The translations under genes were made by a program, and so were the position numbers. DNA of 64,000 bases from an uncultured Gammaproteobacteria bacterium (GTDB lineage: Bacteria; Patescibacteriota; Patescibacteriia; Patescibacteriales; GWC2-42-12). Each line of letters starts with the position of its first letter. Within the stretch, counting starts at the first letter, position 1. The notes beneath the pieces are model-generated. The model worked only from the letters and a program-made list of their open reading frames with translations, ran no database searches and was not told where the DNA came from. Shown here one piece after another: positions 22,801 through 53,362 of the stretch. The stretch covers positions 8,025 through 72,024 of the forward strand of contig CAYSKV010000002.1 of assembly GCA_964431805.1 (NCBI GenBank). The letters run 5' to 3'.

Positions 22801-25800
22801 CCGATTGTTCCTCCATATGCAGAAATTGATCCAGTGGTTGAAAATGAATTTGCAGTAACTCCTGAATTAAAAGTAAAGTTTACTCCAGAACTTTTTGTTA
22901 TAGAACCATCACCCAAAGAAATACCGCCCGTAGAACCATTTCCAAAAATAGCATTTGAAGTTGAACTTGCTCTAAAAGTACCGGCGACATCTAGCGAATA
23001 ACTTGGATTCGTCGTGCCGATGCCGACATCGCCGGAGTTATCAATTACCATTTTCGTAGTAACTGCTCCGAAGCCGGTGCCGAAGGCCAGACCGGTCGCG
23101 CCCGCGCCGAATGTATAGCCTCTAATATCGGCCAATTCCGAACCCGAGCTGGTGCCGTTGCCCGTGAAGACAATCCGCGGACCGCTACCGACAGTAGCGG
23201 AAGCCACGGCCGCCTGGAGTTTAAGCACATTTTGTCCGCTCGTACTTACCGCCGCCGAGCTATAAACATCCAGCAAGGTATTGGGCGTAGTTGTGCCGAT
23301 CCCGACATTGCCTGAAGCGTCAATAATGAACGGCGTAGCGTCGGGAGAAGTAGAGTCTTCAACTATAAAACTCGGACCGGTACCGGTGTTGGTGACGGAC
23401 AATTTAGCGTAAGGAGTAGTAGAGCCGATGCTGACATCGCCGGAGTTATCAATTACCATTTTCGTAGTAACTGCTCCGAAGCCGGTGCCGAAGGCCAGAC
23501 CGGTCGCGCCCGCGCCGAATGTATAGCCTCTAATATCGGCCAATTCCGAACCCGAGCTGGTGCCGTTGCCCGTGAAGACAATCCGCGGACCGCTACCGAC
23601 AGTAGCGGAAGCCACGGCCGCCTGGAGTTTAAGCACATTTTGTCCGCTCGTACTTACCGCCGCCGAGCTATAAACATCCAGCAAGGTATTGGGCGTAGTT
23701 GTGCCGATACCGACGTTGCCGCTACCTTTCATAACAAAACCAATTGTGTCGACAGTTGAAGTTAAGCCAGCAGAATATCTAAAAGCAATTGCGTCATTAA
23801 TATCATTATTTAATAAATCAAAAACAAAATGATTATTTGCTGCTGATGATAAACGAGTAGCATACGACGTAGAGCCAGGATTTAAACCAGAAACATTAGA
23901 ATATGGATCTATAATTAAACCTCCACCAATTGCTGTTGAAGGGAGTACCGTTATAACATCTGCTCCAATAGTTTCATCTTTTAAATAAAAATTGCCGCCG
24001 TGAGTACGTATACTATAAGAACGAAGGGTTGCATAATTATCATCTAAAGTAATTTTGGGATTATCAGATTGTAGATAAAGTAAACTATTTGGACTCGTCG
24101 TCCCAATTCCCACATTCCCGTTACTAGCTATATATAAACTGCTGGTCGCTGTCCAGGCAGAATTTTGATAAGTTAAAGTTTGCCCGGTTGCGCCGATTGG
24201 CAAAGAATCAATACCTGCCGTAAATAAAGTTGAAGTAGCTACCCACTCAGTAGCTGAACCAGTGGTTTTTAAAATCATACCGTTAGTTCCGGCCGATGAT
24301 AATGAATCATACAATGCTCCGGTTAGAGCCATATTGCCGGCGACTGAGAGAGTTTGATAAGGGGAAGTTGTGCCTACACCAAGATTAGTCCCATCAAATA
24401 CAAAATTAGCGTTATCAGTTAATCTTCCATTTGTTGTAGCAAAAGGAATACGACCAGAAATAAGATCAATCCCATCATTTAAAACAAAACCTTTTCTATC
24501 ACCAACAACACTCCCTGATTGTAACTCTATTCTTCTAACGCCCATCCAACTTTCAGTAGACCATCTATCTGCGAATTTAAATGCGTAATATCGATATGCA
24601 GTATTATTTGTAACATTTATATATTTAGGATCGGCCTGATCTGCTGCAACATGTTGATCAAAAGTAGATTGAGAAGTTGTTAGCTGAGTCCAATTAGTGT
24701 CTATTCCATAAGTAAGTTCAGCAAATGCGTTCGCGTCATTAGAACCCCACAAAGTGAAATTTTTCACACCACCGCCAGTTGATCCTCCGTAATGATGAGC
24801 ATTCTCATAATATATTCTTGTTACTACCATACTTGAACCAAGATCTATATGGAATCGCTGATTAGTGATACTGCCATTTGCCCCTACCCATGAATTATTA
24901 TTTTGTTGACTTCCTGTAACTGATAATGATGGATTAGTAGCATAATAAGGCCAATAAGATGCATCATATATTGATGTTGCTTTGACGTAAGTATCTGAAT
25001 AAGCTAAAGGATAATTTGAAACAAAGCCGTTTGAATTTATTGATCCATAAAATGAATTACCGTCAAATTCTATTGCCCCAGCCTCAGATGTAGCTAATAA
25101 TGTCCCGGCTGTAAATTTAAGCGGAGCAGCCCCGGCGGTAGTGGTTCCTGCCGCTAGATGCAAAAACGCTGATGGAGAGGTAACACCAACCCCAATATTT
25201 CCATTCGCCTCTATATATAAACTCGAAGTCGCAGTCCAGGCAGAATTTTGATAAGTTAAAGTTTGGCCGTTTGTTCCGGTTGGTAAAGTACTAACTCCGG
25301 CCGTGAATAAAGTTGAAGTCGCTACCCACTCAGTAGCCGAACCGGTAGTTTTTAAAATCATGCCGTTAGTTCCGGCTGACGATAATGAATCATAAAATGC
25401 TCCTGTTAAAGCCATGTTGCCAGAAACGGAAAGAGTCTGATAAGGAGAAGTTGTGCCGATGCCGACGTTGCCGGTATTTGTTATGGTTAAAAAAGCATGA
25501 GATGTTGCCGCAGTTTCTCTGTCATGAGCTGATACAGAACTCTTTCTTCCAACTACATAATAATCTGATGATATATTATCATAAGGTCGTCCACTAAACC
25601 ATTCTGTATCGCTACTTCCATTAAACATATACAAACCCTGCCCTCTCTTAACGTCAGCTGAAGTATTTAATACTAAAGCACCGCCATGATAAAGTGATGA
25701 ATTTGTACCAGTAATAGTTAATTCTGGATATAAACCAGAAATTTCCACAGCAGTTGTCGGATTCGTAGTTCCAACGCCCACATTTCCATTACTCGCTACA

Positions 25801-28800
25801 GTTAAATAAGTTGATGTTGCCGCGCCAACGGTTGAAGAAGCAATAGTAAACAATGGCGCTAAACCACCTAAAGTATTTTCTACAGAAAGTTTAGCGTAGG
25901 GAGAAGTTGTACCGATGCCGACATAGCCATTTCCATCTATTGTAAACCGCTCCTGTCGTGTTGAACCATCGCTTGTAAATAGACCTAATTTTCTAGTTCC
26001 CGATCTAGCAATTCCAACGGCTGTTGCATCAATTGTAGATGAACCGCCAGATCCAAAAAACCAACCATCTTGTGTAGCGCCATTAAAATCTCTATCAAAA
26101 ATTGTTCTAGGCTGAGTTTCTGTTGAATAGTAATGAGCCATTTCTCCTGTTGTTGGTATAACCCATACGTGACTAGGTGTCGCTATATCACCAAGCCTAA
26201 TACTTCCATTAACATCCAGCTTATACCCAGGACTAACCGTTCCAATTCCAATATTCCCATTCTGTAATACATTCAAGCTGCCGTTTCCGGCAACTAGCCC
26301 GCCGGCAAAAGTTGAAGTTGCGGTCGTTGAAGTTGCGTTAAAATATTCGGCTACTGCCGGACCTACTACGGAGAGTTTAGCATATGGAGAAGTTGTCCCA
26401 ATTCCGACATTGCCAGTAGCTGTTATTCTCATCCTTTCGGTTGCAGCAGGACCAATAATAATATCCCCACCACCAACTTCAGTTCCTCCCTTTTTAGCTG
26501 TCAGAAATGATGTTGTGCCATCTATTGCTACTGAAATAACAGCGTTATAATGGCTTTCATCTAGGGTATCCTTGTTCGTATCAATTGATATAAATGATTG
26601 CTTGCCAACGCCGATTGAAGAATAAAGGGGGGCAATAACTAAAGCGGCATTTACATCCGAGGCGGTATTCCCTGTTAAAAATTGTGTTCTCGGATAATTA
26701 GCAGAAGGGCTATAGGCAGTAAACACGCCCTTAGCATTCGTTACTTCGCTAGAGATATAAGCTTGGTTCGTTATTAAATCTGACACTGATAACTTATACC
26801 CCGGCGCTGCCGTCCCAATCCCGACATTTCCATTAGTTAGTATAGAAACTCTTTCATTGCCAGCGCCAGAGGCAGAATCAAAGATAGATAATCGTCCGTT
26901 GTCAGAATTTTTAATAGACCAGGTCGAGGTGCCAATGTTTAGTGTGTCGAACCAACCTTCATTCCAACGATACGAAGAAGAGCCAATGTTATAGGTTAAA
27001 TTAGCGCTTGGTAGAATATCTCCAGAAACTGATAATCCTGAGCTAGTGATTGTTCCGGTGGCGGTTAGATTACCGGCAATATAGGCATCGCCGACTACGG
27101 AGAGTCTGGCGAATGGAGAAGTTGTACCGATGCCGAGGTTAGTTCCATTAAATACAAAATCAGCAGTATCAATTAATCTTCCATTGGTTGTTGCAAAAGG
27201 AACACGGCCAGCAACCAAATTAACGCCATCATTCAAAACAATGCCTTTTCTGCTACCAGCTTCATTTTCACCTTCTTGTTGTTGTAATTCTATGCGACGA
27301 ACCGCCATAAAATAAGAACCCCAATTATCTGCAAATTTAAAAGCGTAATATCTATAAGCAGTATTATTTTCAACAGTTATATATTTTGGATCTGGCGTAT
27401 TAGCTGCAACATGTTGTTCAAATTCGGTTTCTAAAGTAGTTAACTGTGTCCAGTTAGTATCATCCCCATAAGTTAAATCATCAAATGCGCTTGAATCGTT
27501 TGACCCCCAAAAAGTGAAATGTCTTACGCCAGCTTCCGTATAGTTTCCACTGTCATGGGCATTCTCATAATATATTTTAGTAACAGTTTTAGCTGAACCT
27601 AAATCAATATGAAATCGCTGATTAGTAGTTGCGCCATTGCTTGCATTCCAATTATCATTATTATCATCGCCAATTAAAGATTTATTTGGATCGGTAGCAA
27701 AATAAGCCATATATTGAGGCGTATTTTCTGATGTTGCTCTAACATAAGTCGCTGATTGTTCAGGCGGATATTGCGTTTGATATTGATATCCGGATGTTAT
27801 GGTTAAATAATAATTATCGCCTAAAAATTCCATAACTCCTGCTTCAGGATCAGTTAATAATGTCCCGGAAGTAAATTTGAGCGGAGCTGTGCCTACTGCG
27901 GAAGTTCCCGCGCCCAAATGCAAACGCGCAGTTGGTTCAGTAGTTCCAATTCCTACATTACCACTGACAATCAAATTATTAGTAACTTCACCATTTAATA
28001 TATTAGTAATTCCATCACTGCTAACTCGTAACATTTCTGATCCATTAAGTGCAACACCAAAGATGGTAGTATGGATAACCTCCTTAATCTGCTCATAACC
28101 ACGGATTATTCCTGTTCTAGTACTCAAGAGCATATCCTTATCTCCGTCATCATCCAGATCAGCAAAAGCAGGTATATTAATACCACCAATAACAGCAATT
28201 GCCCAGTCAGGATTATTTGTCCAAACTGGCGCGGAACCATCTCCAGTATTTTCAAAGCCATAAACACTATTAGCAGCATAAAGCCAGTTACCAATGAATA
28301 AATCCTGATCACCGTCATCATCAAAATCACTCAAAATAGGATAAATTGCGTAGTTAGCAGGTATTGGGATGTTCCAACTCGGCTCGGCCGACCAGCTTGG
28401 TAAAGAAACTGTGCCGATGTTTTCATAGCCAAGTATTATATATGCACCGCCATTATTGTAAAAACCCACCATTAAGTCATAATCACCGTCACCATCCAGA
28501 TCGCCCAGGGTCGGCAAATTCATATCTGTATTGGTGATTACCGGAGTATTCCATTCCGTCTTAAGTGCCCAAGCTGGTGATGTTGCGTTTCCTGTATTTT
28601 CAACGCCATAAGCCATGTCAGCAGTGGTTCCAACTAAAAGATCGAAGTCGCCGTCATTATCAAGATCCGCAACAGTTGGATAGCCCCATGAACCAAAATC
28701 TGTTGGAACATTCCATTCTGGTCTAGCTGTCCAAGTCGGCGATGTTGCGCTTCCCGTATTTTCATAAGCACCAATTATTCCATCTAGATTCATTAATAAA

Positions 28801-31800
28801 TCATAGTCTCCATCATTATCTAAATCAGCCAAAGCTGGGACAACATCCAAGCTTGGTATATTTTCCATATCCCAATCGGTTTGCGCTTCCCATCCTTGAA
28901 AAACCGGTGCTCCCTCTCCCGACTCTGTTGGATTAATATATACCGAACCCTGACCGATTCCTGACCCAGTTGGAGTTCCGGAAAAAGTTGCCAAACCGCT
29001 GACTCCCAAAGTGCCAGCTATATTCAACAAGGAAGTTGGGTTATCAGTTCCAATGCCAATATTGCCTGAAGCAGCAATTCTCATTCTTTCAGAGTTATTT
29101 ATAGAAAAAGCAATTGATTGATTTGCAGTGTCTGGAAAATAAATATTATCCAGATAAAAAGTATTGGCCGAATCAGCATTAACTATAGTAATGATAATTT
29201 GATCAATTGCATCCTTGCTGGCATTGACTACTCCGGAAATATCCCAGGTAATATTTTGAAAAGCATTTGCCGAAGTCAAATCAGGAGTGATTTCAGTGGT
29301 TGTGCCTCCGCTGTCATGTAAACCAATTTTTATATTTGATCCGGTGCGATTGGATCTCAGATCGAAATAGATAGTATTTATATTTGAGAGATTCAGGGGA
29401 ACATCTAATGTTCTAGTCAATGTTTTATTCAAGCTGTCTGTAATAGTAGCCTCGCCTCTTAAGGAATATGATCCCTGAGTTTTTATAGTTGATTCTGCAT
29501 AAGCAACCAGATTAGTATCGGAACTTCCATATTCAATGTGCAGCCTGGGAGCTGTGGAAACACCTGCTTCATAGGAATTAGCTGCATATATATAATTTCC
29601 CGAAGTTGATAAATTATCATGATCATCAAAAAATAGCGCCAGATTAGTCACTGCTCCCAAATCAGCAATTTCCTGGATCACACTGGAAATATCCGGAGAA
29701 TTATTCCAGCTACTTGCTGTCCAAGTTGCATCATCCCAGCCGACCTGAGCTGTTGTAATGTTATTATTATTAGCTCCGCCTACTATTGTTCCACGCCTGG
29801 TTTGGTAGTCTGACAAACTGGAAAAGGTGCTTGCTGAAGTGCTTAGTTCTCCGGTTATTTTGGATTTTGTGCCACTGCCGCCAATCTGAGGCAAGCCCCT
29901 AACTGCATAGAAACTTAGATAGGCACTTGTTATAGTAACTCCTTCAGGAATATTAACTCCGGCGAAACGCAAACCAGAACCTACTCTATCAATTGAAGCG
30001 AATGATTCCAGTGTTCCGGCTCCTGCTAAGCCTATGCTGGTATCAAAGAGCCAAGAACCTGAATTATAATATCCTAAACCATCATCTGTGTCTGCGCTTA
30101 CTTGTGCGTCAATTGTGCCGGTAGGTCCGGAGTTTTCACTTTCATAATCTGTCGGATTTTCTGCATTGTCAATAAAATCACCCGCTGATTGGGTGGTTAA
30201 AGAAATACTATTCCCAGCAGTAGTTAGTAAACCAGCCGAATTAATATAAAGACCTTCCGTTCCAACACCTAATCTATTATTTACATAATCCCAATAAAAA
30301 TTAGGGTTGTCTTGCGCAAGATTACCATCAGCATCAATGAATAAAACTGATTCAGGGGTACCATAAATAACTTCATTACCGATAGCAAGTATGCCTAAAG
30401 TCGAAGTCGCTACCCATTGCGTTGTTAAACCGGTAGTTTGCAAAACCATACCATTCGTTCCGGCGGCTGACAAAGAATCATAAAATGCTCCGGTCAAAGC
30501 CATATTACCGGCGACGGATAACGATTGAAATGGAGAGGTTGTGCCGATTCCGATGTTGCCGTTTGAATCAATCCTCATCCATTCTGTGCCGGCAGTAGAA
30601 AATTTTAGTTGGTCGTTATCAGCGCCGGCAGAATCTTCGGCAGTTATTTTTGTATCTTGATCAACGTCAATCACGCCGCCGAGTGATCCCCAGGAAGTAT
30701 TACCATAACCTTCAAATTGAGAAGTTTCTGAATTATATCTAATAGCGCCGGTGATTGAAGTCGGACGCTCGGCCGTTGTACCAACCGGTATAATTAAACC
30801 ATCAGTACCAACAATATGAAAAATAGTTTGTGGGCTCGTTGTCCCAATTCCCACATTCCCACCGTCTAAAATGGTAAAGACTTCGTTAGCGCCATCAAAG
30901 AGGTTAATAATATCTCCATCACCGTCTTGTCTTACGGTTAGAGCTGTAGTTGAGCTGGCAGAATTAAGGGTTAATTCTCTGAGGTTAAGAATCATTTGGT
31001 CGGTGGTTGAACTATTGCCAAAAGTTAGAATGTCGTTGATGGTATCAATGTTGATGTTGTCATTAGTCCCGTCGCCCACGGTTAGAGCTGAAGTTGAGGC
31101 TACATCTAAATCTAGAGCGCCGTTTAAATCTATGTCGCCATTAAACTGAGAGGTGCCAGAATGGTTTAAGCTTCCGGTAATCGTCACTATGTCGTCGCTG
31201 GTGTTAACCGAGAAAGTGTCGTTAGTGCCGTCACCCACGGTTAGGGCCAGGCCATTTTGGTCTATGTTTAAGAGATTATTTAAATCAACCATGCCAGCGA
31301 TTAAAACATGTTCGCCGTTTAGATAAGTGTCACCGGCTACGGTTAGGCCGCCTTCGCCGGCTGATAGGCTTTGCGAACCGACTGGCCCGGTAGAGCCTAA
31401 ACTCGGAACTTCAGTATGGCCGGCTGAGAAAGTGCCGGTGACATAAGTGTTGTTGTTGATTATTTGAGTACCGGTGATTAATGAACCGTCGGTAATAGTA
31501 ACTCCGTTTAGTTTAATTGAACCGGTCACTATTAGATCTTTTACTGTTAGAGCAGAATTAAATACTGCGTCCCCTAGAAATTCGCTAGCGCCTGAAACAG
31601 TTAGTTTGTCTTTTAGTTTAGTCGCACCAGAGACATTTAATGCGCCGCCGACAGTGGTATCGCCGATGATGGAGAGATTTTTGGGGGTGGGAGCAACTAC
31701 CTGCCTTACTGGTGAACTATTTTGGACTATGGTAGTTTGATTAACTATTTTTTCTGTGGTGGTTGGAGATTGTTCAACCGCCTGTCCCGTACCGGCCTTA

Positions 31801-33464
31801 CCACTACCAATTTCAATTAAATAATATTTGGCATATTTATTTTTAAGAGATTTTGGAAAAATTATATCTATAAATTTAGAATACAGATCATGAAGCGACC
31901 ATAAAGAACGACCGGCTTCGCTAGTTAAATAATTTTTGCCGTTACTATTATACTCTTGAATTGAACCTCCGATTTGTTGCGCTGAATTATTAGTTTGATT
32001 AATTGCGTTTCCTGCCTGGGCTAATTTAGCTTGGCCGTTTTTTGAAACTAACCCAACGCCTTTAGCCGTGGCCAAAGTAAGCTTGGCTAATTTACGACCA
32101 AAGTCTAAAGATAATTCTTTTTGTCGATCGCCTAAGTCTTCTAAAACTACGCTTGCATTATATTTTGTTTGATTAATAACTTCTTGCCCGCGTCGCGAAG
32201 TTGTATTAGCTAAAGCTAAAAGGCGTGGCATCGGCGAAGAAGTAAAAGAAGCAGTTTCCGATACGCCCGCAACCTTGCCTTGTCTTTTATTTGATTCGGT
32301 TTGTTCTGGTTTAGAATTAACTTCTTGTATTAAATAAGCTATTTCACCAACCGATTCACCTTGATAATTTACAAAACTTTTTAAAATAGCTAAACTGCTC
32401 TGACCAAAATTTACAATTTCATCTGGTAAAATTGTTAAACCTAAATTTAAACCGCTAAATTCATTTTTAGCTAACTGAAAAAGCGGATTAACATTTTTTT
32501 GATATTGAACCTGCCAAAAACCAGTAATAAATAATGCCTGATCTTTTACCGCGCCTAATTTTAAGGCTAAAATCTGATTGCGGCGCTTAAAATTATTTTC
32601 TAATTTTAAGCTTGAAGCGCTAATACGGTCAGCTAAAGTTAAAAACAAGCTATCTAAAGAATTCTTGCTTTCCTGAACTAATTCTTTGCCTGGAATTATT
32701 TTATTAGCGCCAATTTTAATACTGGGAGTAAAAACATTAAAAGAAATTAAAGCCAAAACAATAATAATGGTTACTAAGGCGGTTTTAAACAAACGAGGAA
32801 AAAAACTTAAATTTTTCTTATTAGAAAAAAATTCTTTTTCAGTTTTTATTTTTTTAACGACAGAGCCTTGCTGAGTTAAAAAATCTTTAGCTTCTTGATG
32901 TAAATTTTCTTGCCATTTAACTTTAAGCCTAATTTCCGGTTCAACAAAGTCGGCGATAAATTTAGCTTCGGGAGTAATAATTTTATTATTTAAAATTTCC
33001 TCTAGCTTATTTAATGAAATTTCGTCTGCGGTATAACCTTTTTCTTTAACACTTTTTTGAACAATTTTATTTTCCTCGTCAACCTTTTTAACGGCAGAAT
33101 CTATTTTTTCTTGTTTAGTTTGATCGGCAAATTTTTCTTTGACCGCCCGCTCAACTAAATTATCAATCTGACTTTTTAATTTAGCCGAAGCTACAGACTC
33201 GGAAATAAGTTGTTTATTAGAAACTTTATTAGACGACAATTCTTGAACCGCTTCCGAAGATAGTCTTTTTTCGTCTCGAGCATGCAGCCCTAAATATTGA
33301 TCAAACCATTCTTTAGTCGAATAATATTTATTACCAATTTTTTTAGCCTTTAATTTTTTTCGTTGCACTAAAATAGAAACATAGCCAAAACTATAAGAAC
33401 TAGCCTCGGCTATCCTTTTTAAAGGTATTAGTTTTTTGTAATCATCAGATTGTGAGCGACGCAT
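19833..33464 (-). CDS. Giant (4543 aa) mosaic cell-surface protein. Domain order: N-terminal HTH-like segment, TM anchor, beta-helix/tail-fibre-like repeats, FG-GAP/VCBS-like Asp repeats, two discoidin-like modules, YadA-head-like repeats, C-terminal FGE-sulfatase/C-type-lectin-like domain
   Basis: A single uninterrupted 13.6-kb ORF in the track. Motifs read from the translation: IPLKRIAEASSYSFGYVSILVQRKKLKAKKIG (N-terminus); LFKTALVTIIIVLALISFNVF (TM); about 20 copies of GN[VI]GIGTT[ST]P; five DLD[ND]DGD[YF]DL-type repeats; NQRFHIDLGS...IYYENAH...NTAYRYYAFKFAD (twice); AFGxxA repeats; C-terminal ..GYHLIGENEWLTIAENI..VSEWT..NVGFRCTK. Confidence 0.85.
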   Translation of the reverse strand: MRRSQSDDYKKLIPLKRIAEASSYSFGYVSILVQRKKLKAKKIGNKYYSTKEWFDQYLGLHARDEKRLSSEAVQELSSNKVSNKQLISESVASAKLKSQIDNLVERAVKEKFADQTKQEKIDSAVKKVDEENKIVQKSVKEKGYTADEISLNKLEEILNNKIITPEAKFIADFVEPEIRLKVKWQENLHQEAKDFLTQQGSVVKKIKTEKEFFSNKKNLSFFPRLFKTALVTIIIVLALISFNVFTPSIKIGANKIIPGKELVQESKNSLDSLFLTLADRISASSLKLENNFKRRNQILALKLGAVKDQALFITGFWQVQYQKNVNPLFQLAKNEFSGLNLGLTILPDEIVNFGQSSLAILKSFVNYQGESVGEIAYLIQEVNSKPEQTESNKRQGKVAGVSETASFTSSPMPRLLALANTTSRRGQEVINQTKYNASVVLEDLGDRQKELSLDFGRKLAKLTLATAKGVGLVSKNGQAKLAQAGNAINQTNNSAQQIGGSIQEYNSNGKNYLTSEAGRSLWSLHDLYSKFIDIIFPKSLKNKYAKYYLIEIGSGKAGTGQAVEQSPTTTEKIVNQTTIVQNSSPVRQVVAPTPKNLSIIGDTTVGGALNVSGATKLKDKLTVSGASEFLGDAVFNSALTVKDLIVTGSIKLNGVTITDGSLITGTQIINNNTYVTGTFSAGHTEVPSLGSTGPVGSQSLSAGEGGLTVAGDTYLNGEHVLIAGMVDLNNLLNIDQNGLALTVGDGTNDTFSVNTSDDIVTITGSLNHSGTSQFNGDIDLNGALDLDVASTSALTVGDGTNDNINIDTINDILTFGNSSTTDQMILNLRELTLNSASSTTALTVRQDGDGDIINLFDGANEVFTILDGGNVGIGTTSPQTIFHIVGTDGLIIPVGTTAERPTSITGAIRYNSETSQFEGYGNTSWGSLGGVIDVDQDTKITAEDSAGADNDQLKFSTAGTEWMRIDSNGNIGIGTTSPFQSLSVAGNMALTGAFYDSLSAAGTNGMVLQTTGLTTQWVATSTLGILAIGNEVIYGTPESVLFIDADGNLAQDNPNFYWDYVNNRLGVGTEGLYINSAGLLTTAGNSISLTTQSAGDFIDNAENPTDYESENSGPTGTIDAQVSADTDDGLGYYNSGSWLFDTSIGLAGAGTLESFASIDRVGSGLRFAGVNIPEGVTITSAYLSFYAVRGLPQIGGSGTKSKITGELSTSASTFSSLSDYQTRRGTIVGGANNNNITTAQVGWDDATWTASSWNNSPDISSVIQEIADLGAVTNLALFFDDHDNLSTSGNYIYAANSYEAGVSTAPRLHIEYGSSDTNLVAYAESTIKTQGSYSLRGEATITDSLNKTLTRTLDVPLNLSNINTIYFDLRSNRTGSNIKIGLHDSGGTTTEITPDLTSANAFQNITWDISGVVNASKDAIDQIIITIVNADSANTFYLDNIYFPDTANQSIAFSINNSERMRIAASGNIGIGTDNPTSLLNIAGTLGVSGLATFSGTPTGSGIGQGSVYINPTESGEGAPVFQGWEAQTDWDMENIPSLDVVPALADLDNDGDYDLLMNLDGIIGAYENTGSATSPTWTARPEWNVPTDFGSWGYPTVADLDNDGDFDLLVGTTADMAYGVENTGNATSPAWALKTEWNTPVITNTDMNLPTLGDLDGDGDYDLMVGFYNNGGAYIILGYENIGTVSLPSWSAEPSWNIPIPANYAIYPILSDFDDDGDQDLFIGNWLYAANSVYGFENTGDGSAPVWTNNPDWAIAVIGGINIPAFADLDDDGDKDMLLSTRTGIIRGYEQIKEVIHTTIFGVALNGSEMLRVSSDGITNILNGEVTNNLIVSGNVGIGTTEPTARLHLGAGTSAVGTAPLKFTSGTLLTDPEAGVMEFLGDNYYLTITSGYQYQTQYPPEQSATYVRATSENTPQYMAYFATDPNKSLIGDDNNDNWNASNGATTNQRFHIDLGSAKTVTKIYYENAHDSGNYTEAGVRHFTFWGSNDSSAFDDLTYGDDTNWTQLTTLETEFEQHVAANTPDPKYITVENNTAYRYYAFKFADNWGSYFMAVRRIELQQQEGENEAGSRKGIVLNDGVNLVAGRVPFATTNGRLIDTADFVFNGTNLGIGTTSPFARLSVVGDAYIAGNLTATGTITSSGLSVSGDILPSANLTYNIGSSSYRWNEGWFDTLNIGTSTWSIKNSDNGRLSIFDSASGAGNERVSILTNGNVGIGTAAPGYKLSVSDLITNQAYISSEVTNAKGVFTAYSPSANYPRTQFLTGNTASDVNAALVIAPLYSSIGVGKQSFISIDTNKDTLDESHYNAVISVAIDGTTSFLTAKKGGTEVGGGDIIIGPAATERMRITATGNVGIGTTSPYAKLSVVGPAVAEYFNATSTTATSTFAGGLVAGNGSLNVLQNGNIGIGTVSPGYKLDVNGSIRLGDIATPSHVWVIPTTGEMAHYYSTETQPRTIFDRDFNGATQDGWFFGSGGSSTIDATAVGIARSGTRKLGLFTSDGSTRQERFTIDGNGYVGIGTTSPYAKLSVENTLGGLAPLFTIASSTVGAATSTYLTVASNGNVGVGTTNPTTAVEISGLYPELTITGTNSSLYHGGALVLNTSADVKRGQGLYMFNGSSDTEWFSGRPYDNISSDYYVVGRKSSVSAHDRETAATSHAFLTITNTGNVGIGTTSPYQTLSVSGNMALTGAFYDSLSSAGTNGMILKTTGSATEWVATSTLFTAGVSTLPTGTNGQTLTYQNSAWTATSSLYIEANGNIGVGVTSPSAFLHLAAGTTTAGAAPLKFTAGTLLATSEAGAIEFDGNSFYGSINSNGFVSNYPLAYSDTYVKATSIYDASYWPYYATNPSLSVTGSQQNNNSWVGANGSITNQRFHIDLGSSMVVTRIYYENAHHYGGSTGGGVKNFTLWGSNDANAFAELTYGIDTNWTQLTTSQSTFDQHVAADQADPKYINVTNNTAYRYYAFKFADRWSTESWMGVRRIELQSGSVVGDRKGFVLNDGIDLISGRIPFATTNGRLTDNANFVFDGTNLGVGTTSPYQTLSVAGNMALTGALYDSLSSAGTNGMILKTTGSATEWVATSTLFTAGIDSLPIGATGQTLTYQNSAWTATSSLYIASNGNVGIGTTSPNSLLYLQSDNPKITLDDNYATLRSYSIRTHGGNFYLKDETIGADVITVLPSTAIGGGLIIDPYSNVSGLNPGSTSYATRLSSAANNHFVFDLLNNDINDAIAFRYSAGLTSTVDTIGFVMKGSGNVGIGTTTPNTLLDVYSSAAVSTSGQNVLKLQAAVASATVGSGPRIVFTGNGTSSGSELADIRGYTFGAGATGLAFGTGFGAVTTKMVIDNSGDVSIGSTTPYAKLSVTNTGTGPSFIVEDSTSPDATPFIIDASGNVGIGTTTPNTLLDVYSSAAVSTSGQNVLKLQAAVASATVGSGPRIVFTGNGTSSGSELADIRGYTFGAGATGLAFGTGFGAVTTKMVIDNSGDVGIGTTNPSYSLDVAGTFRASSTSNAIFGNGSTGGISLGDGSITKSSGVNFTFNSGVTANSFSTTGSISAYGGTIGVDTTSGYYIAFNNAGLGAGRIGVSSSAGTGIFGNGGLTYATVFGTDNATPLQFFTNDTARMTIDSTSGNVGIGTTSPYAKLSVENTLGGSAPLFVVASSTAGAATSTYLTVASNGNVGIGTTSPTSRLSIIGSGSTSSTYSFNVNNSSGNNIIMARDDNRVKIGQSYDTTISKTLEVAGNFNFDTVANPTNAQTQGMVLTNSGAGSIPAGTYYYAVAFGTADGDTGGASYTIFPTITSASDFSVSISNIPTSTDPRVTKRKIYRSQAGTVGDYYYLYYIGTINDNTTTTYSDNSAMDTTATDWIYNKNNTTAGIIYRDGVVFGRLGNYVTAFGNGAMPVVTRGSTSSAFGSGALAALTTGNDNDAFGNGAVASLISGIGNAGFGYATLQGNQTGSSNAAFGQNALRNNSNYSYSFNNAFGSHALFGLTTNNNSNNALGYGAGRNAQGSYGTYLGYAAGYQASATTVGNYNIVIGSDSGSVLGSGANNILIGKDVELTSPTTSNQLNIGNLIFATGMDGTGTTLSTGKVGIGSTTPYAKLSVTNTGTGPSFIVEDSTSPDATPFIIDASGNVGIGTTSPQALLTVGSSTPVYLLAGDKYNSAYISGLLEVGGTGTSTIASNLDVLGTLHATNSYVGDLIFANNFRFTEAASGITPQALFLQNQNGENIMSFDENGSIIIGKDSVSEPGQEPEVKIVELTEITASSTKTAFIVNQSGSGDIADFQANGVSIMNIAQSGEVKVAGSMLVDGRIMLCAGGYCSNALDSAVDETMADLGVEGKVVAGAFEGYCEDGFVWVPGSAKYGTLPGFCVQADLMKDELDQIKTNISQGEAQIACQTLGTGYHLIGENEWLTIAENILQNPDNDSDTNIAGMQLATTSISYKLNNDNLINNLVGEVSEWTDSNITQDDTINPLSDEWQEYNLISSFKSLQYLKPAYYLTSSNNGIGKILTGAGDVPVRGFIRGFDGIYSLDLSHSPAEQNNNVGFRCTK
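21085..21214. repeat. 130-bp exact repeat (copy A') inside the giant gene
   Basis: By eye, the stretch ccgacattgcctgaagcgtcaataatgaacggcgtagcgtcggg...gagccgatgc is identical to 23302-23431. Confidence 0.85.
23025..23708. repeat. Perfect tandem duplication X-A-X (period 408 bp) inside the giant gene; the X block is conspicuously GC-rich
   Basis: By eye, 23025-23300 is identical to 23433-23708 (276 bp). This also explains the two identical antisense 61-aa ORFs in the track (23045.. and 23453..). The 130-bp block 23302-23431 between them recurs at 21085-21214. Confidence 0.9.
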
Positions 33465-38357: not shown

Positions 38358-41228
38358 ATGTCCAACTCAATCAAAATTAAAGGTGCTCGCGTTCATAATT
38401 TAAAAAATATTGACATAGAAATTCCACGCGATAAATTAGTGGTTTTAACCGGCTTATCCGGTTCGGGAAAATCGTCTTTGGCTTTTGATACTATTTATGC
38501 CGAAGGCCAACGCCGTTACGTTGAATCTTTATCCGCTTACGCCCGACAATTTATCGGCCAAATGAATAAACCTGACGTTGATTCTATTGACGGTTTATCG
38601 CCGGCTATTTCCATTGACCAAAAATCAACTTCGCATAACCCTCGCTCAACCGTCGGCACGATTACCGAAATTTACGATTATTTACGCCTGCTTTATGCTC
38701 GCATCGGCGTGCCTCATTGTCCGACTTGCGGTGACAAAATTAAACCCATGTCGATTGATGAAATTATCAGCCAAATTACCGCTGGCTTCCTAAATCAAAA
38801 TATTATAATTTTAGCCCCTTTAATTAAAGATAAAAAAGGAGAACACAAAGGTTTATTAGACGGCGTAGCTAAAGCCGGCTACTCTCGCTTAAGATATGAC
38901 AAGGTTATTTATTCTTTAGAAGAAGTTCGTGATTTAAATGTTGACAAACAAAAAAAACATAATGTAGAAATCGTGATTGACCGATTAACTGTTAGTAAAG
39001 ACAAAGAAGATTTGGCGCGATTAACCGAGAGCGTGGAAAAAGCTTTGGAATTAGGTAACGGTCTAGTTACAGTTTCCGCCTCTCTTATAAAAAACGAACA
39101 AAAAGAATTAAATCGCGAAATTACTTTTTCTAAACTTTCCGCCTGTTCTAAATGCGGCATTAATCTGCCAGAACTTGAACCGCGCAATTTCTCTTTTAAT
39201 TCACCGCATGGCGCTTGCCCTGACTGCTCTGGATTAGGCACAAAATTAGAAATTGACCCAAAATTAATTATTAATTATAATTTAACCTTAGCTCAAGGCG
39301 CAATTAGGCCCTGGGCTCATAGCACGGCTGGCGGACAAGGCTGGATGATGCGTATCTTAGGAACGGTTGCTGAGGCTCAAGGCTTTGATTTAAATACTCC
39401 AATTAAAGATCTAACTAAAAAACAATTAGATATTGTGCTTTATGGTTCTGGCGAAAAAAACTATAACGTTGATTATCAAAGCGACCGTTTTTCCGGCGAA
39501 TTAACTACCGAATTTGAAGGCGTTATCCCTAATTTAGAACGTCGCTTTCAACAAACCGAATCAGATTATGTTAGAAAAGAAATTGAGCAATACATGAGAG
39601 TTTTAGTCTGCCCAACTTGCGGCGGCAAACGTTTAAAACCGGAAATGTTAGCCGTAAAAATTGCGGATATGTCAATTTACGACATCTCGTCAAAAACTAT
39701 TGACCAAGAAAAAAAATTCTTTAACGAACTAACTAATTCAAAAACAATTTCCGCGCGCGATAAAAAAATTGCTACTCAAATTTTAAAAGAAATTTGCGCT
39801 CGCTTAGATTTTTTATCTAACGTCGGTTTAGATTATCTAACTCTTGGAAGAACGGCGAATACTTTATCCGGTGGCGAAGCTCAACGCATTAGATTGGCTA
39901 CGCAAATCGGCTCGGCTTTAATGGGCGTAATTTATATTTTAGATGAACCATCTATCGGTTTACATCAGCGAGACAATAATAAATTAATCGGCACGCTTAA
40001 AAAACTGCGCGACTTAGGCAATACCGTAATTGTAGTTGAACATGACGAAGCGACTATGCTAGAAGCTGACTGGCTGGTTGATATCGGCCCAGGCGCTGGC
40101 GAGCATGGCGGTCAAATCGTAGCTCAAGGCACGCCGCTAACCATAAAGAAAAACGCTAAATCTTTAACCGGGCAATACCTAAACGGAAAAAAATTTATTC
40201 CGGCGCCGGTTCAATATCGCGCTGGCAGCGGTAAAAAATTAACTATTATAAAAGCGAGTGAGCATAATCTAAAAAATATTGACGTAGAATTTCCTTTGGG
40301 CATGCTTATCGCCATAACCGGCGTTTCCGGATCAGGTAAATCAACTTTAATGACCGACATTTTAGCTAACGCCCTAAACCAAAAACTTTACCGCGCTAAA
40401 CAAGTACCAGGTAAACACGAAGCAATTAAAGGCTTGGAAAATATTGATAAAGTAATCAATATTGATCAATCGCCTATTGGTCGAACGCCGCGTTCTAATC
40501 CGGCGACTTATACCGGCGCCTTTACACCGATTCGGGATTTATTTGCCTCTCTGCCTGAAGCTAAAATCAGAGGTTATAAAACTGGGCGTTTTTCTTTTAA
40601 CGTTCCTGGCGGACGTTGTGAAGCTTGCGGTGGCGACGGTATGGTTAAAATAGAAATGCAATTTTTACCCGATGTTTATGTTGAATGCGAAGTCTGCCAC
40701 GGTAAAAGATATAATAAAGAAGCTCTAGAAATTCATTACAAAGAAAAAAATATTTCTGACGTTTTAAATATGACGGTTGAAGAGGGTTTGGAATTTTTTA
40801 AAAATATCCCGGCGATTGAACAAAAACTTTTTACTTTAAACCAAGTTGGTTTAAGCTATGTTAAACTCGGACAATCCGCCACTACTTTATCCGGCGGCGA
40901 AGCGCAAAGAGTAAAATTAGCGACCGAACTATCCCGCCGTGCTACCGGAAAAACTTTATATATTCTTGATGAACCAACGACCGGCTTGCATTTTGATGAT
41001 ATTAAAAAACTTCTACATGTTTTAAATCAATTAGTTGATAAAGGCAACACAGTTTTAATTATTGAACATAATTTAGATGTTATTAAATCAGTTGATTGGA
41101 TAATTGATCTCGGGCCAGAAGGCGGCGACAAAGGCGGCGAAATCGTGGCCCAAGGCACACCTCGACAAGTTGCCAATAACAAGAAATCATATACTGGCCA
41201 ATATTTATCTAAAGTACTCAAAAAATAA
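38358..41228 (+). CDS. uvrA: Excinuclease ABC subunit A
   Basis: 956 aa, starting [54 protein letters not shown]. It has two ABC modules, zinc-finger Cys motifs ([27 protein letters not shown]) and two LSGGE signatures. Confidence 0.98.
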
Positions 41229-41269
41229 AAATTACACTGGGTAATATTTAATAAAAATTCTAAAAAAAT

Positions 41270-41296
41270 AAGCTTCTTTTTTAAAAAAAGAAGCTT
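41270..41296. terminator. Bidirectional hairpin terminator (uvrA on +; candidate minus-strand transcript on -)
   Basis: The hairpin AAGCTTCTTTTT-tta-AAAAAGAAGCTT is flanked by A-run/T-run on both sides. Confidence 0.6.
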
Positions 41297-41300
41297 TAAT

Positions 41301-41742
41301 GTTTTGGCGAGGAGCCCCTACTAAAAGAAGTTGTGGAGCAAAGCTTAACGAGTAGGAAAAGCGATGCCTTCTTAAGACAGTAGAGACCCCTCAAAATTTT
41401 TAGGGAAGGAGCCTGCTGCTGAAAGGACTGTGGTGAAACCCTTTGCCGGGGAAAGCCACAAAATACAGCAGACTCCTTAAAATTCAGCGCGCCTAAGGCA
41501 GTTAGGCTATATTATAATCAGGGGTTAATAAGGGGTTATTATGATGATTATAATAATTACCGAATTTTTTATTTGGTTAAACGGCTGGTCTGGCGGCTTC
41601 ATGGCAAACCGCCAGACCGAACAGCATATTACGCCGCACCACAAAAGATTCTATCGCTGCAGAAGGTGGTTGGTTAGACCATGCGCGTTACCCGTTACGC
41701 GCGGACAGCAACAGAACCCCACCCATTAAAAGATCAATATTA
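41301..41742. ncRNA. GC-rich, ORF-poor, stem-rich region: candidate structured RNA(s), family not identified (minus strand slightly favoured)
   Basis: The region is visibly richer in G+C than other intergenic DNA. Stems: CTACT..AGAAG (41318-41330) / CTTCT..AGTAG (41368-41383); AAGGAGCCTGCTG (41406-41418) / CAGCAGACTCCTT (41466-41478, one C.A mismatch); GCCTAA (41491-41496) / TTAGGC (41502-41507); GGTCTGGCGG (41587-41596) / CCGCCAGACC (41609-41618); GCGCGT (41683-41688) / ACGCGC (41697-41702). It sits between convergent genes, with a promoter at 41750-41777 (-) and a terminator at 41270-41296. Confidence 0.45.
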
Positions 41743-41749
41743 ATTTAAA

Positions 41750-41777
41750 ATAATACTCTATATACGCCTTTTGTCAA
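41750..41777 (-). promoter_or_regulatory. Candidate promoter firing into the GC-rich region on the minus strand
   Basis: The minus strand reads TTGACA (41777-41772), a 16-nt spacer, then TATTAT (41755-41750). It lies immediately after the stop of the AAA+ ATPase gene. Confidence 0.4.
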
Positions 41778-41779
41778 TA

Positions 41780-43123
41780 CTATCTATAAAATAACAAAAA
41801 ATACGTAAGCGGCATTATATTAATGCCGTTTTTATTTTCCAGCTTATCCTTAGTAATAATTATGCCTTTTTTAAATCCAGCTTGTTTAAAAATATTAAAA
41901 TCCGCTTGGCTAATTTCTTGATTATACCTAATTAAGATGGGTGTGACATTTTCTCCCTGCTTAACTAAAAAATTTATTTCTTTCTTTTTAATATTATCGC
42001 GCCAATAATTTATTTTTATTTCTTCATTTTTAATTAATTGACTAAAAATTACATTTTCCACTAAAGCGGCAAAAACTTGATTATTATGCAAGCGTTCTCG
42101 CGCTAATTTATAATAATTAAGCGAACCGTGAGTATAAGAATAAAAAAGCCAAAAAATAAATGGATCTTGAAAATAAACTTTTTTGGCTTTACGACTCCCC
42201 GCGGAGTCGTCAGCCTGAAAAACTGTTTTAACCGTAAACATTGATTCTAAAATATTTAAATACTCAGCCACGGTTAGATGAGTTTTAGCTTTGGTTTTAT
42301 GAGTTAAAGTTTTATAACCTAGGGGCTGGCCTAAATTTAAAATTAATTTTTCCATTATTTGCCTAGTTAAAATTATATCACGGCCTAATTCAGCCACATA
42401 AGTTAAAAACCAATGCAAAAAACTACTATAAATATTTTGCCTGATAGTTCCATTCTCTTTATAATCATTAATAGCGGAAATAAAACCTCCGGTTAAAAGA
42501 TAAATATCTAAATAATATTCAAGTTTATGTTGGGATTTTAAATAATTTTCTTGGTTTAAATTTTTAAAAATCCCCGGATTGATTAAATTAATAAATTCGC
42601 CAAAAGTTAAAGTGCTTATAGTTATATTTTTAACATAGCTAACTTTAATTTTAGCATCAATAAAAGACGAGGAAGATAAAATAACCGTTGTGTTAATTAA
42701 TTTGCCAGCTCTAATTAAATAATCTATGCCTTTCTGCCAATTTTTTATCATGGTAATTTCATCGATAAAAATATAATGTCGCGCCTTACTTTCCGCCTTT
42801 GAATTTAAAAATAACTTAATCATTTCGTTAAGCTGCTCATAGCTATCAAGATTATGGCAAGAATAAAAAAAGATATTATTCGGATTAACCTTATCTTCTT
42901 CAATTAATTTTTTAATAGCCAACTTTAATAAAGTGGTTTTACCGGCGCCCTTAACTCCGCAAAAACAATAACGTTCATCTTTATCTAAATTAATCTTATC
43001 TAAAACTGCTGGTTGCCATTTTAAAATTTGACGTTCATATTGTTCAATCACTGGATCAAACTTTAAATTTTCGCCGCGCCACCAAGTATTTTGAATAGAA
43101 AGTAATTCTAAATTTAAATCCAT
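41780..43123 (-). CDS. AAA+ ATPase of the AAA_14/DUF4143 (COG1373) type
   Basis: 447 aa with Walker A GVKGAGKTTLLK and Walker B-like YIFIDEIT. The length and C-terminal half are typical of DUF4143 ATPases. Confidence 0.7.
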   Translation of the reverse strand: MDLNLELLSIQNTWWRGENLKFDPVIEQYERQILKWQPAVLDKINLDKDERYCFCGVKGAGKTTLLKLAIKKLIEEDKVNPNNIFFYSCHNLDSYEQLNEMIKLFLNSKAESKARHYIFIDEITMIKNWQKGIDYLIRAGKLINTTVILSSSSFIDAKIKVSYVKNITISTLTFGEFINLINPGIFKNLNQENYLKSQHKLEYYLDIYLLTGGFISAINDYKENGTIRQNIYSSFLHWFLTYVAELGRDIILTRQIMEKLILNLGQPLGYKTLTHKTKAKTHLTVAEYLNILESMFTVKTVFQADDSAGSRKAKKVYFQDPFIFWLFYSYTHGSLNYYKLARERLHNNQVFAALVENVIFSQLIKNEEIKINYWRDNIKKKEINFLVKQGENVTPILIRYNQEISQADFNIFKQAGFKKGIIITKDKLENKNGINIMPLTYFLLFYR

Positions 43124-53141: not shown

Positions 53142-53215
53142 GGGCGTGTAGCTCAGCTGGTTAGAGCACGGCTCTTATAAAGCCGGGGTCGATGGTTCAA
53201 GTCCATCCACGCCCA
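53142..53215 (+). tRNA. tRNA-Ile, anticodon UAU
   Basis: Hand-folded cloverleaf. Acceptor GGGCGTG/CACGCCC; D arm GCTC-AGCTGGTTA-GAGC; anticodon stem CGGCT/AGCCG with loop C-T-TAT-A-A (anticodon at 53176-53178); variable loop GGGTC; T arm GATGG-TTCAAGT-CCATC; discriminator A. CCA is not encoded (the gene is followed by CCT). Confidence 0.85.
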
Positions 53216-53232
53216 CCTTTAAAATAATATTT

Positions 53233-53306
53233 GGACAATTAGCTCAGTTGGTTAGAGCGCCACATTGACATTGTGGAGGCCACAGGTTCGAGTCCTGTAT
53301 TGTCCA
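53233..53306 (+). tRNA. tRNA-Val, anticodon GAC
   Basis: Hand-folded cloverleaf. Acceptor GGACAAT/ATTGTCC; D arm GCTC-AGTTGGTTA-GAGC; anticodon stem CCACA/TGTGG with loop T-T-GAC-A-T; T arm ACAGG-TTCGAGT-CCTGT; discriminator A. Confidence 0.9.
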
Positions 53307-53362
53307 CCCTTGTTAAATATTGTAATAAACATTATAATATTTATATAACTTCTAAAAATAAT

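Follow-up and report, generated by a model that had tools for sequence, protein, structure and literature searches.

Here we report on the intergenic region between uvrA and a convergent ATPase gene in a 64-kb stretch of DNA (64,000 nt of contig CAYSKV010000002.1, hereafter the window) from an AT-rich Patescibacteria/Candidate Phyla Radiation (CPR) genome, the G+C content of the window being 35.6%. We consider it probable, if far from assured, that positions 41746-41262 of the minus strand form a stand-alone gene for a noncoding and highly structured RNA of ∼480 nt, which belongs to a new RNA family of a Falkowbacteria-like clade, is dispensable and acts in trans. Judged from the sequences compared, the family appears to be clade-restricted, absent from Rfam 15, modular and fast-evolving. 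In the mechanism that we propose, transcription would start from a near-consensus sigma-70 promoter of its own, directly behind the gene for the ATPase (domains AAA_14 and DUF4143), and would end at a bidirectional terminator that also serves uvrA. As conserved elements, the family would have this promoter, a single-stranded leader of ∼22 nt (UGAUCYUUUU), a long and irregular hairpin termed module B with a YCCYUUCA loop, and the terminator. The other modules (A, C, H2, H5 and an AT-rich domain) would be variable, being duplicated, inserted, replaced or deleted between close relatives. The product would be a dispensable regulatory RNA acting in trans, with the unpaired leader and the module B loop as putative contact surfaces for a target RNA or protein, and the variable hairpins may add stability or extra binding sites.

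The structure of the region exceeds chance. The minimum free energy (MFE) of the minus strand was -162.9 kcal/mol, compared with -118.3 +/- 6.2 kcal/mol in dinucleotide shuffles (z = -7.2), and none of the 100 shuffles folded as well; the corresponding z-score of the plus strand was -3.4. Local G+C content of the structured region was 0.44-0.53, compared with a window mean of 0.356. The minus-strand MFE fold contains 155 base pairs, 17 of which are G.U pairs that become A.C mismatches on the plus strand, and the substitutions found inside helices in two related loci, L019 and L092 (loci of relatives are numbered in this way throughout), change G.U to A-U or C-G to U-A. A preliminary description of the window had placed several stems here, and both AAGGAGCCTGCTG (41406-41418) with CAGCAGACTCCTT (41466-41478) and GGTCTGGCGG (41587-41596) with CCGCCAGACC (41609-41618) are indeed present, as is an AT-rich island at ∼41500-41575. 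The stem GGTCTGGCGG/CCGCCAGACC, reported as perfect and 10 bp long, extends to 13 bp. One detail needs correction: the 13-bp stem AAGGAGCCTGCTG/CAGCAGACTCCTT is complete (with one G.U pair) on the minus strand only, being interrupted by a C.A mismatch on the plus strand.

Transcription signals flank the structured region. A sigma-70-type promoter (41750-41777, minus strand; -35 box TTGACA at 41777-41772, 16-nt spacer, -10 box TATTAT at 41755-41750) was recovered by a consensus scan with 11 of 12 matches and begins 3 nt past the stop codon of the ATPase gene (TAG, 41782-41780). TTGACA lies at a constant distance of 22 nt upstream of the sequence TTTAAAT in six lineages (the window, L092, L081, L083, L090 and L089), and L101 possesses a perfect promoter, TTGACA-16-TATAAT (12/12 consensus), followed by TTTAAGC instead of TTTAAAT. 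From the position of the -10 box, the transcription start site would be the AAA of TTTAAAT, at ∼41746-41744. The predicted 5' end of the RNA is the AU-rich leader AAAUUAAUAUUGAUCUUUUAAU (41725-41746, minus strand; core UGAUCYUUUU), which is unpaired in the MFE fold, and an alignment of leaders revealed that it is conserved in nine lineages despite differing downstream bodies. At the other end, a terminator scan of both strands identified an intrinsic terminator (41262-41296, minus strand), which consists of a 13-bp hairpin AAGCUUCUUUUUU/AAAAAAGAAGCUU (inverted repeat I1) and a U-run; in the consensus scan, hairpin and T-run cover 41296-41270 and the tail extends to 41262. This terminator appears to be bidirectional and would also end the convergent uvrA transcript, and a comparable hairpin and U-run is found at the end of every homologue. 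Because no minus-strand terminator was detected inside the unit by the terminator scan, the region most likely represents one transcription unit rather than several RNAs, and a single transcript of ∼480 nt, from ∼41746 to 41262 on the minus strand and with some six helical modules rich in G+C, is predicted. In addition, a separate terminator of the ATPase gene precedes the RNA promoter in L090 and L101; thus, the RNA appears to be an independent unit. The preliminary description had proposed an unassigned minus-strand structured RNA running from a TTGACA-16-TATTAT promoter to a hairpin with a T-run. Both signals were found again in our scan, and strand, promoter and terminator are supported by the homologues.

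Relatives were found via homologues of the ATPase, which were traced to their contigs; on these, the clade gene order (ArgRS, VTT/DedA, ATPase and convergent UvrA) is kept. The window UvrA is 98% identical to that of the metagenome-assembled genome (MAG) JBAZFW01 and 61-91% identical to UvrA proteins of Falkowbacteria, Parcubacteria and other Patescibacteria MAGs. Promoter and leader are shared by the window, L019/L098, L092, L081/82/96, L083, L090/94 and L089, and occur in slightly altered form in L101 and L001. The ATPase and uvrA genes overlap in L086/87, a bare terminator is all that separates them in L011, L084, L091 and L100, and otherwise the spacer reaches 250-1070 nt; the promoter and the leader pattern TTTAAAT-N5-YUGAUCYUUUU open the long spacers, that of L099 excepted. 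An nhmmer search with the whole region in 80 uvrA loci of GTDB species genomes matched only L019, which is essentially the same species as the window and carries a 91% identical homologue. When the promoter-leader pattern was run against 241 million metagenome records, seven loci emerged, four of them true and three due to chance; among the true ones, L092 was new and three were duplicates of known loci. Thus, the family appears to be rare. No match was obtained by blastn against 50,697 phage records, and a scan of viral contigs with the inner motif of module A returned 13 matches, all in GC-rich phage DNA (0.45-0.68 G+C) with no CTAACC motif nearby.

Module B (41406-41478, minus strand) is the core hairpin of the family and could be aligned in seven lineages. 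It is composed of a 14-bp outer stem, AAGGAGUCUGCUGU/GCAGCAGGCUCCUU, an inner hairpin, UUGUGG...CCACAG, and an unpaired 3' internal loop, which reads AGUCCUUUCA in the window and is pyrimidine-rich in all members (AACCCUUUCA, CCCCCCUUUCA, UCUCCUCUCA and similar). Five of the 14 outer pairs were changed on both sides, a count that in part reflects a register shift in the alignment (GGAG versus GGAAAG). In the aligned lineages 95% of cells were paired, compared with 42-57% when the partner strand was slid, and the covariation score was reached by 1 of 500 shuffles. A covariance model of module B (R1) detected exactly one copy per RNA locus and no extra copies in 628 kb of the window and its relatives, and no further copy of the region was found in the 64-kb window by blastn-short. 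Since R1 finds a single copy per locus and nothing else, the hairpins do not appear to be dispersed repeats of the REP (repetitive extragenic palindromic) or MITE (miniature inverted-repeat transposable element) type.

Four further structured domains could be recognized in the window RNA, all on the minus strand. Module A (H1, 41647-41718) forms a three-way junction in the MFE fold, with the outer stem GGUUCUGUUGCUG/CAGCGAUAGAAUC. It encloses two hairpins, a GCGCG one whose loop is AACGGG (41702-41683) and a small one whose loop is CUAACC, as well as CCACCUUCUG (41669-41660), which is unpaired; the module A alignment (window, L019 and L092) contains one compensatory change from C-G to U-A and several changes from G.U to A-U. 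The H2 domain (41582-41637) consists of a 13-bp hairpin, GGUCUGGCGGUUU/AAGCCGCCAGACC (41618-41587; inverted repeat I2), set on a GCGGC/GCCGU stem in the consensus fold of the same three loci; in the single-sequence MFE fold, its 5' part forms a small hairpin, Hx (41637-41621), instead. The H2 loop sequence is free to vary, and the AUG that it contains in the window is missing in L092. The AT-rich branched domain (41479-41568; MFE fold and inverted repeat I4) is closed by AAAAUUCGGU/GCGCUGAAUUUU and comprises an 11-bp AU stem, UAUUAUAAUCA/UGAUUAUAAUA, which exposes two ACCCCU motifs, and a small hairpin, GCCUAACUGCCUUAGGC. It appears to lie outside the conserved core, because only the window and L019/L098 have it, other modules taking its place in L092. 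H5 (41309-41392; MFE fold) is a long hairpin with a branched apex and a 15-bp stem, GAGGGGUCUCUACUG/UAGUAGGGGCUCCUC, that includes four G.U pairs; it is also found in the window and L019/L098 only, and one U.G pair of the window is U-A in L019. The motifs CCUUC, CCCCU (twice), CCUUUC and CCUCC had an unpaired probability of 0.8-1.0 in the window, L019 and L092, and the exposure of C/U-rich motifs was weaker in L090 and L101.

The RNA bodies of the family are mosaics of 60 to 560 nt in which modules have been duplicated, swapped, inserted or lost. Module A occurs in the window, L019 and L092. In L092 there is a second, paralogous module A, whose outer stem CUAUAACUGUA/UACGGUUAUAG is entirely different yet complementary and whose inner motifs (the GCGCG-AACGRG hairpin, the CUAACC loop and the CCUUCU stretch) are kept. 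Module C is common to L083, L090 and L101. In L019, an extra 35-nt hairpin, CTCAGCTTAGACCTAAGGCAGAAAGCTGAG, is inserted just upstream of H5 and shares CCTAAGGCAG with the small window hairpin GCCTAAGGCAGTTAGGC (41491-41507), which suggests that modules may arise by local partial duplication. L090 contains a GC-rich insert of ∼270 nt; a coding role of this insert was rejected, as the open reading frames (ORFs) of the L090 body resemble arginine-rich translations of GC-rich RNA. At the lower extreme, L089 is reduced to leader and terminator hairpin (∼60 nt), a form that looks like the anatomy of a minimal base-pairing small RNA composed of seed and terminator. L001, whose UvrA is 91% identical, possesses the family promoter and leader followed by a different body with no Rfam match.

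Several spacers contain additional structures. In L001 (5610-5800, minus strand of the locus) we observed a branched hairpin of ∼95 nt, GUCACGGGGAAGAUC...GAUCUUGCCCCGUGAC, followed by a terminator (fold z = -6.2). The L090 spacer (3450-3917) includes a near-perfect palindrome of ∼100 nt at 3564-3662, for which the Rfam score amounted to miRNA-like noise. Repeated short hairpins of the types CCCCAACCCTCCCTTGCCAGGGAGGGA and AAATCCCCCGC...GACCCCTTTATTAAAGGGG are present in L099 (2880-3920) and L091 (2960-3030), and the L099 spacer holds unrelated repeated CCCTCCC...GGGAGGG hairpins, as well as a DUF559 gene. From these arrangements, the ATPase-uvrA spacer looks like an insertion hotspot that has collected other elements in some relatives.

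As to coding potential, the comparison of homologues indicates that the RNA is noncoding. The region had been described as free of ORFs, which is not strictly correct: a 62-codon ORF is present on the plus strand (41541-41729), and it is broken in L019 by indels of +3, +7, +4 and -1 nt. On the transcribed strand, a 25-codon ORF with an isoleucine run encodes MKPPDQPFNQIKNSVIIIIIIITPY, its AUG (41602-41600) lying in the H2 loop, and a type I toxin mRNA had been suggested on this basis. The locus would then be of the type I toxin-antitoxin kind, and the transcript an mRNA with a structured leader for a small hydrophobic peptide. In L019 the ORF persists and differs by one synonymous and one non-synonymous change, as might be expected of such a peptide gene. 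However, the corresponding loop of L092 is CUUUAUAAUAAA, hence without an AUG, and the AT-rich island that encodes the peptide body is swapped there for unrelated modules; the ORF is found in none of L081, L083, L090, L101, L089 and L001. No ribosome-binding motif accompanies the AUG, which is placed in a hairpin loop; at ∼9 residues, the hydrophobic run is too short for a membrane helix. No antisense promoter was evident, with weak plus-strand sites in the promoter scan (for example, 41525-41554, 10/12 matches). A toxin mRNA is therefore extremely improbable in our judgment. A highly divergent universal RNA (RNase P RNA, transfer-messenger RNA (tmRNA), signal recognition particle (SRP) RNA or 6S RNA) that is missed by Rfam models in CPR was also considered, since ∼450-480 nt of GC-rich, stem-dense sequence in an AT-rich genome is the typical appearance of such genes and none of the four was found elsewhere in the window. 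With Rfam 15, the full window yielded two tRNAs and nothing else at gathering score; the 751 nt of 41150-41900 yielded, at E<=10, no more than spurious or terminator-like matches, and L001, L081, L083, L090 and L092, at E<=1, no more than noise resembling terminators or miRNAs. ARAGORN likewise detected the two tRNAs and no tmRNA in the window. These searches agree with the preliminary description in setting aside RNase P RNA, tmRNA and SRP RNA. For RNase P RNA (RF00010/RF00011), no family was matched at E<=10, the P4 pair GAGGAAAGUCC/ACAGAAnnCGGCUUA was not encountered, and GAGGAAAGTCC is absent from both strands of the region, as had been noticed. On the other hand, the argument that ACAGAACCCC (41711-41720) lacks a P4 partner has no bearing, because this sequence is on the non-transcribed strand. 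L083 contains GGGGAAAGUCCGCUG, which is reminiscent of the P4 motif GAGGAAAGUCC; the GGAAAGUCC-like stretch in that locus, however, forms the 5' arm of hairpin B by local pairing and differs between lineages (GGAGUCUG, GGAGAGUCUG and GGAAAGCUUG). tmRNA (RF00023) gave no match at E<=10, GGATTCGAC is absent, as also reported before, and conservation of the candidate reading frames in the AT-rich island does not extend to L092. SRP RNA (RF00169/RF01854) was matched neither in the window at E<=10 nor in the homologues at E<=1. No match at E<=10 was obtained for 6S RNA (RF00013), and the folds are series of independent hairpins, not a single rod. Moreover, at least six close relatives (L084, L086/87, L091, L100, L099 and L011) have no such unit in the orthologous position, and the body has been exchanged in L001 and shrinks to ∼60 nt in L089. 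Such absence and wholesale replacement do not fit an essential universal RNA, and we regard this explanation as very improbable.

Alternatively, the hairpins could be palindromes like those of REP elements and bacterial interspersed mosaic elements (BIMEs), or selfish hairpin repeats, accumulated between convergent genes and transcribed incidentally, or serving as 3'-end stabiliser or insulator. The REP/BIME clusters of enterobacteria likewise consist of GC-rich imperfect palindromes placed between convergent genes; their number differs from strain to strain, and they give rise to hairpins when transcribed. The number of palindromes in the spacer does vary between close relatives, some modules are paralogous (L092 has two copies of A, and a common theme links A to B), and the L099 spacer carries its own repeated hairpins. 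Nevertheless, module B occurs once per locus and nowhere else in the 628 kb, no second copy exists in the window, and a near-consensus promoter with a leader is conserved before the hairpins in nine lineages. The many G.U pairs, formed on one strand only, point to pairing at the level of RNA rather than DNA. It should also be noted that REP/BIME units are simple palindromes of 35-40 nt, whereas the family modules are branched structures of 70-90 nt at a single locus with a conserved promoter and leader of its own. Repeats of this kind are thus an unlikely source of the region. A different proposal starts from the ATPase, of which the RNA could be a partner (guide, sensor, antitoxin or regulator) in a two-component system of defence or conflict. 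In the window the promoter lies directly against the stop codon of the ATPase gene, a placement retained across lineages, the ATPase matches the phage-defence candidate PDC-S01 of PADLOC (weak similarity, E = 2e-27), and fast diversification with patchy presence is typical of conflict systems. However, PDC-S01 is an uncharacterised single-gene candidate, repeats or spacer-like segments are absent, and the gene is found both in relatives with the RNA and, in the same gene order, in relatives without any; therefore, the protein does not seem to need the RNA. Despite the PDC-S01 match, the ATPase gene lies in a housekeeping synteny that is conserved across the clade. A functional link between the RNA and the adjoining ATPase is possible, and it is not required, because the ATPase persists in relatives without the RNA; such a partnership seems improbable to us. 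Still more speculative, and slightly less to be expected, is a cassette-like RNA platform in which fixed promoter and leader would carry exchangeable hairpins. The RNA would then diversify rapidly as a partner (decoy, sensor or antitoxin) of either the PDC-S01-like ATPase or a different conflict system. If true, episymbiotic CPR bacteria would possess a new type of defence or conflict module made up of RNA and protein.

Several other candidates were tried and rejected. CRISPR/TIGR-type guide arrays do not apply, as only short two-copy direct repeats and no array were present. The GCCTAAC...TTAGGC hairpin was considered as an integron attC-like site and dismissed because 17 nt is too short, and no integrase was noticed among the called neighbouring genes. 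A CsrB-type sponge was discarded for want of GGA loops.

The preferred explanation, a dispensable RNA gene acting in trans, has to be balanced against a number of observations that weigh against it. The unit is absent in at least the relatives named above, and the family comprises only ∼9 lineages, several of them very close, which limits covariation; in module B, the register shift accounts for part of the changes on both sides. The body is fast-evolving and often lost, and selection on much of it may be weak or absent. Promoter, transcription start site and terminator are consensus matches, with conservation alone as their backing. When the leader was scanned for duplexes with 35 translation-initiation regions of the window, one modest outlier was found, which was not significant after multiple testing. 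The idea that the CU-rich loops mimic an anti-Shine-Dalgarno sequence is weakened as well, since a Shine-Dalgarno (SD)-like motif (GGAG, GAGG, AGGA or AAGG at -18 to -4) was present in only 2 of 29 long window ORFs, whose starts were set crudely as the first ATG. Anti-SD mimicry was therefore downgraded: the C/U motifs are exposed, yet the host is short of SD sites, and SD occlusion is doubtful. A/T-rich words dominate the upstream regions of the 29 ORFs, which suggests that translation initiation in this host may be largely SD-independent.

Multi-hairpin small RNAs with C/U-rich unpaired motifs are known in Gram-positive bacteria, such as RNAIII of S. aureus (514 nt), RsaE/RoxS and LhrC of Listeria. 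Like these, the window RNA would have its own promoter, an intrinsic terminator and a series of stable hairpins, and its pyrimidine-rich motifs (CCACCUUCUG, ACCCCU twice and AGUCCUUUCA) have an unpaired probability of 0.8-1.0. It also resembles RNAIII in being long for a small RNA and in containing a short ORF. However, no sequence or covariance-model similarity to any of the three was found (Rfam), the short ORF is not conserved, and close relatives differ far more in the RNA body. The scarcity of SD-like motifs in the window makes anti-SD pairing as in the RsaE/RoxS class doubtful. With the sponges CsrB, RsmY and RsmZ, the family shares a strong promoter, a terminator and modular arrays in which related species differ in the number of hairpins. 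Unlike them, it has no loop GGA in eight of nine members and no Rfam match, and the only GGA of the window RNA is paired.

Large structured noncoding RNAs have been flagged as long GC-rich intergenic regions (GC-IGRs) in AT-rich genomes (PMC6429828, PMC8723152, PMC11109978). The present locus, a long, GC-enriched and ORF-poor intergenic region with many helices in a 36% GC genome, is similar in this respect. It differs from such RNAs in matching no Rfam 15 family, those from GC-IGR searches included, in its very narrow distribution (the four true loci in 241 million metagenome records) and in its poorly conserved architecture. A literature search found no described regulatory RNAs from CPR bacteria. 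A non-essential RNA of 480 nt would be a notable investment for uncultured bacteria with tiny genomes, and the family combines a defined promoter and a conserved core hairpin with modules whose gain and loss among close relatives can be followed with unusual clarity. It could thus serve as a usable case for how structured RNAs arise and decay and as a target for metatranscriptome mining, although its importance is limited by its narrow distribution in one clade of ∼9 lineages.

With regard to the flanking genes, uvrA is located at 38358-41228 on the plus strand (stop at 41228), convergent with the ATPase gene at 41780-43123 on the minus strand, whose product has 447 aa (Pfam PF13173 and PF13635, exact protein cluster). 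Also on the minus strand of the window, a giant single ORF of 4543 codons (19833-33464) holds several of the GC-richer stretches of the window. The two tRNA genes lie side by side on the plus strand at 53142-53217 and 53232-53309 (Rfam and ARAGORN); one of them encodes tRNA-Ile with the anticodon UAU (ARAGORN 'tat') and the other tRNA-Val(GAC). tRNA-Ile(UAU) is uncommon in bacteria, in which AUA is usually read by a lysidine-modified CAU anticodon.

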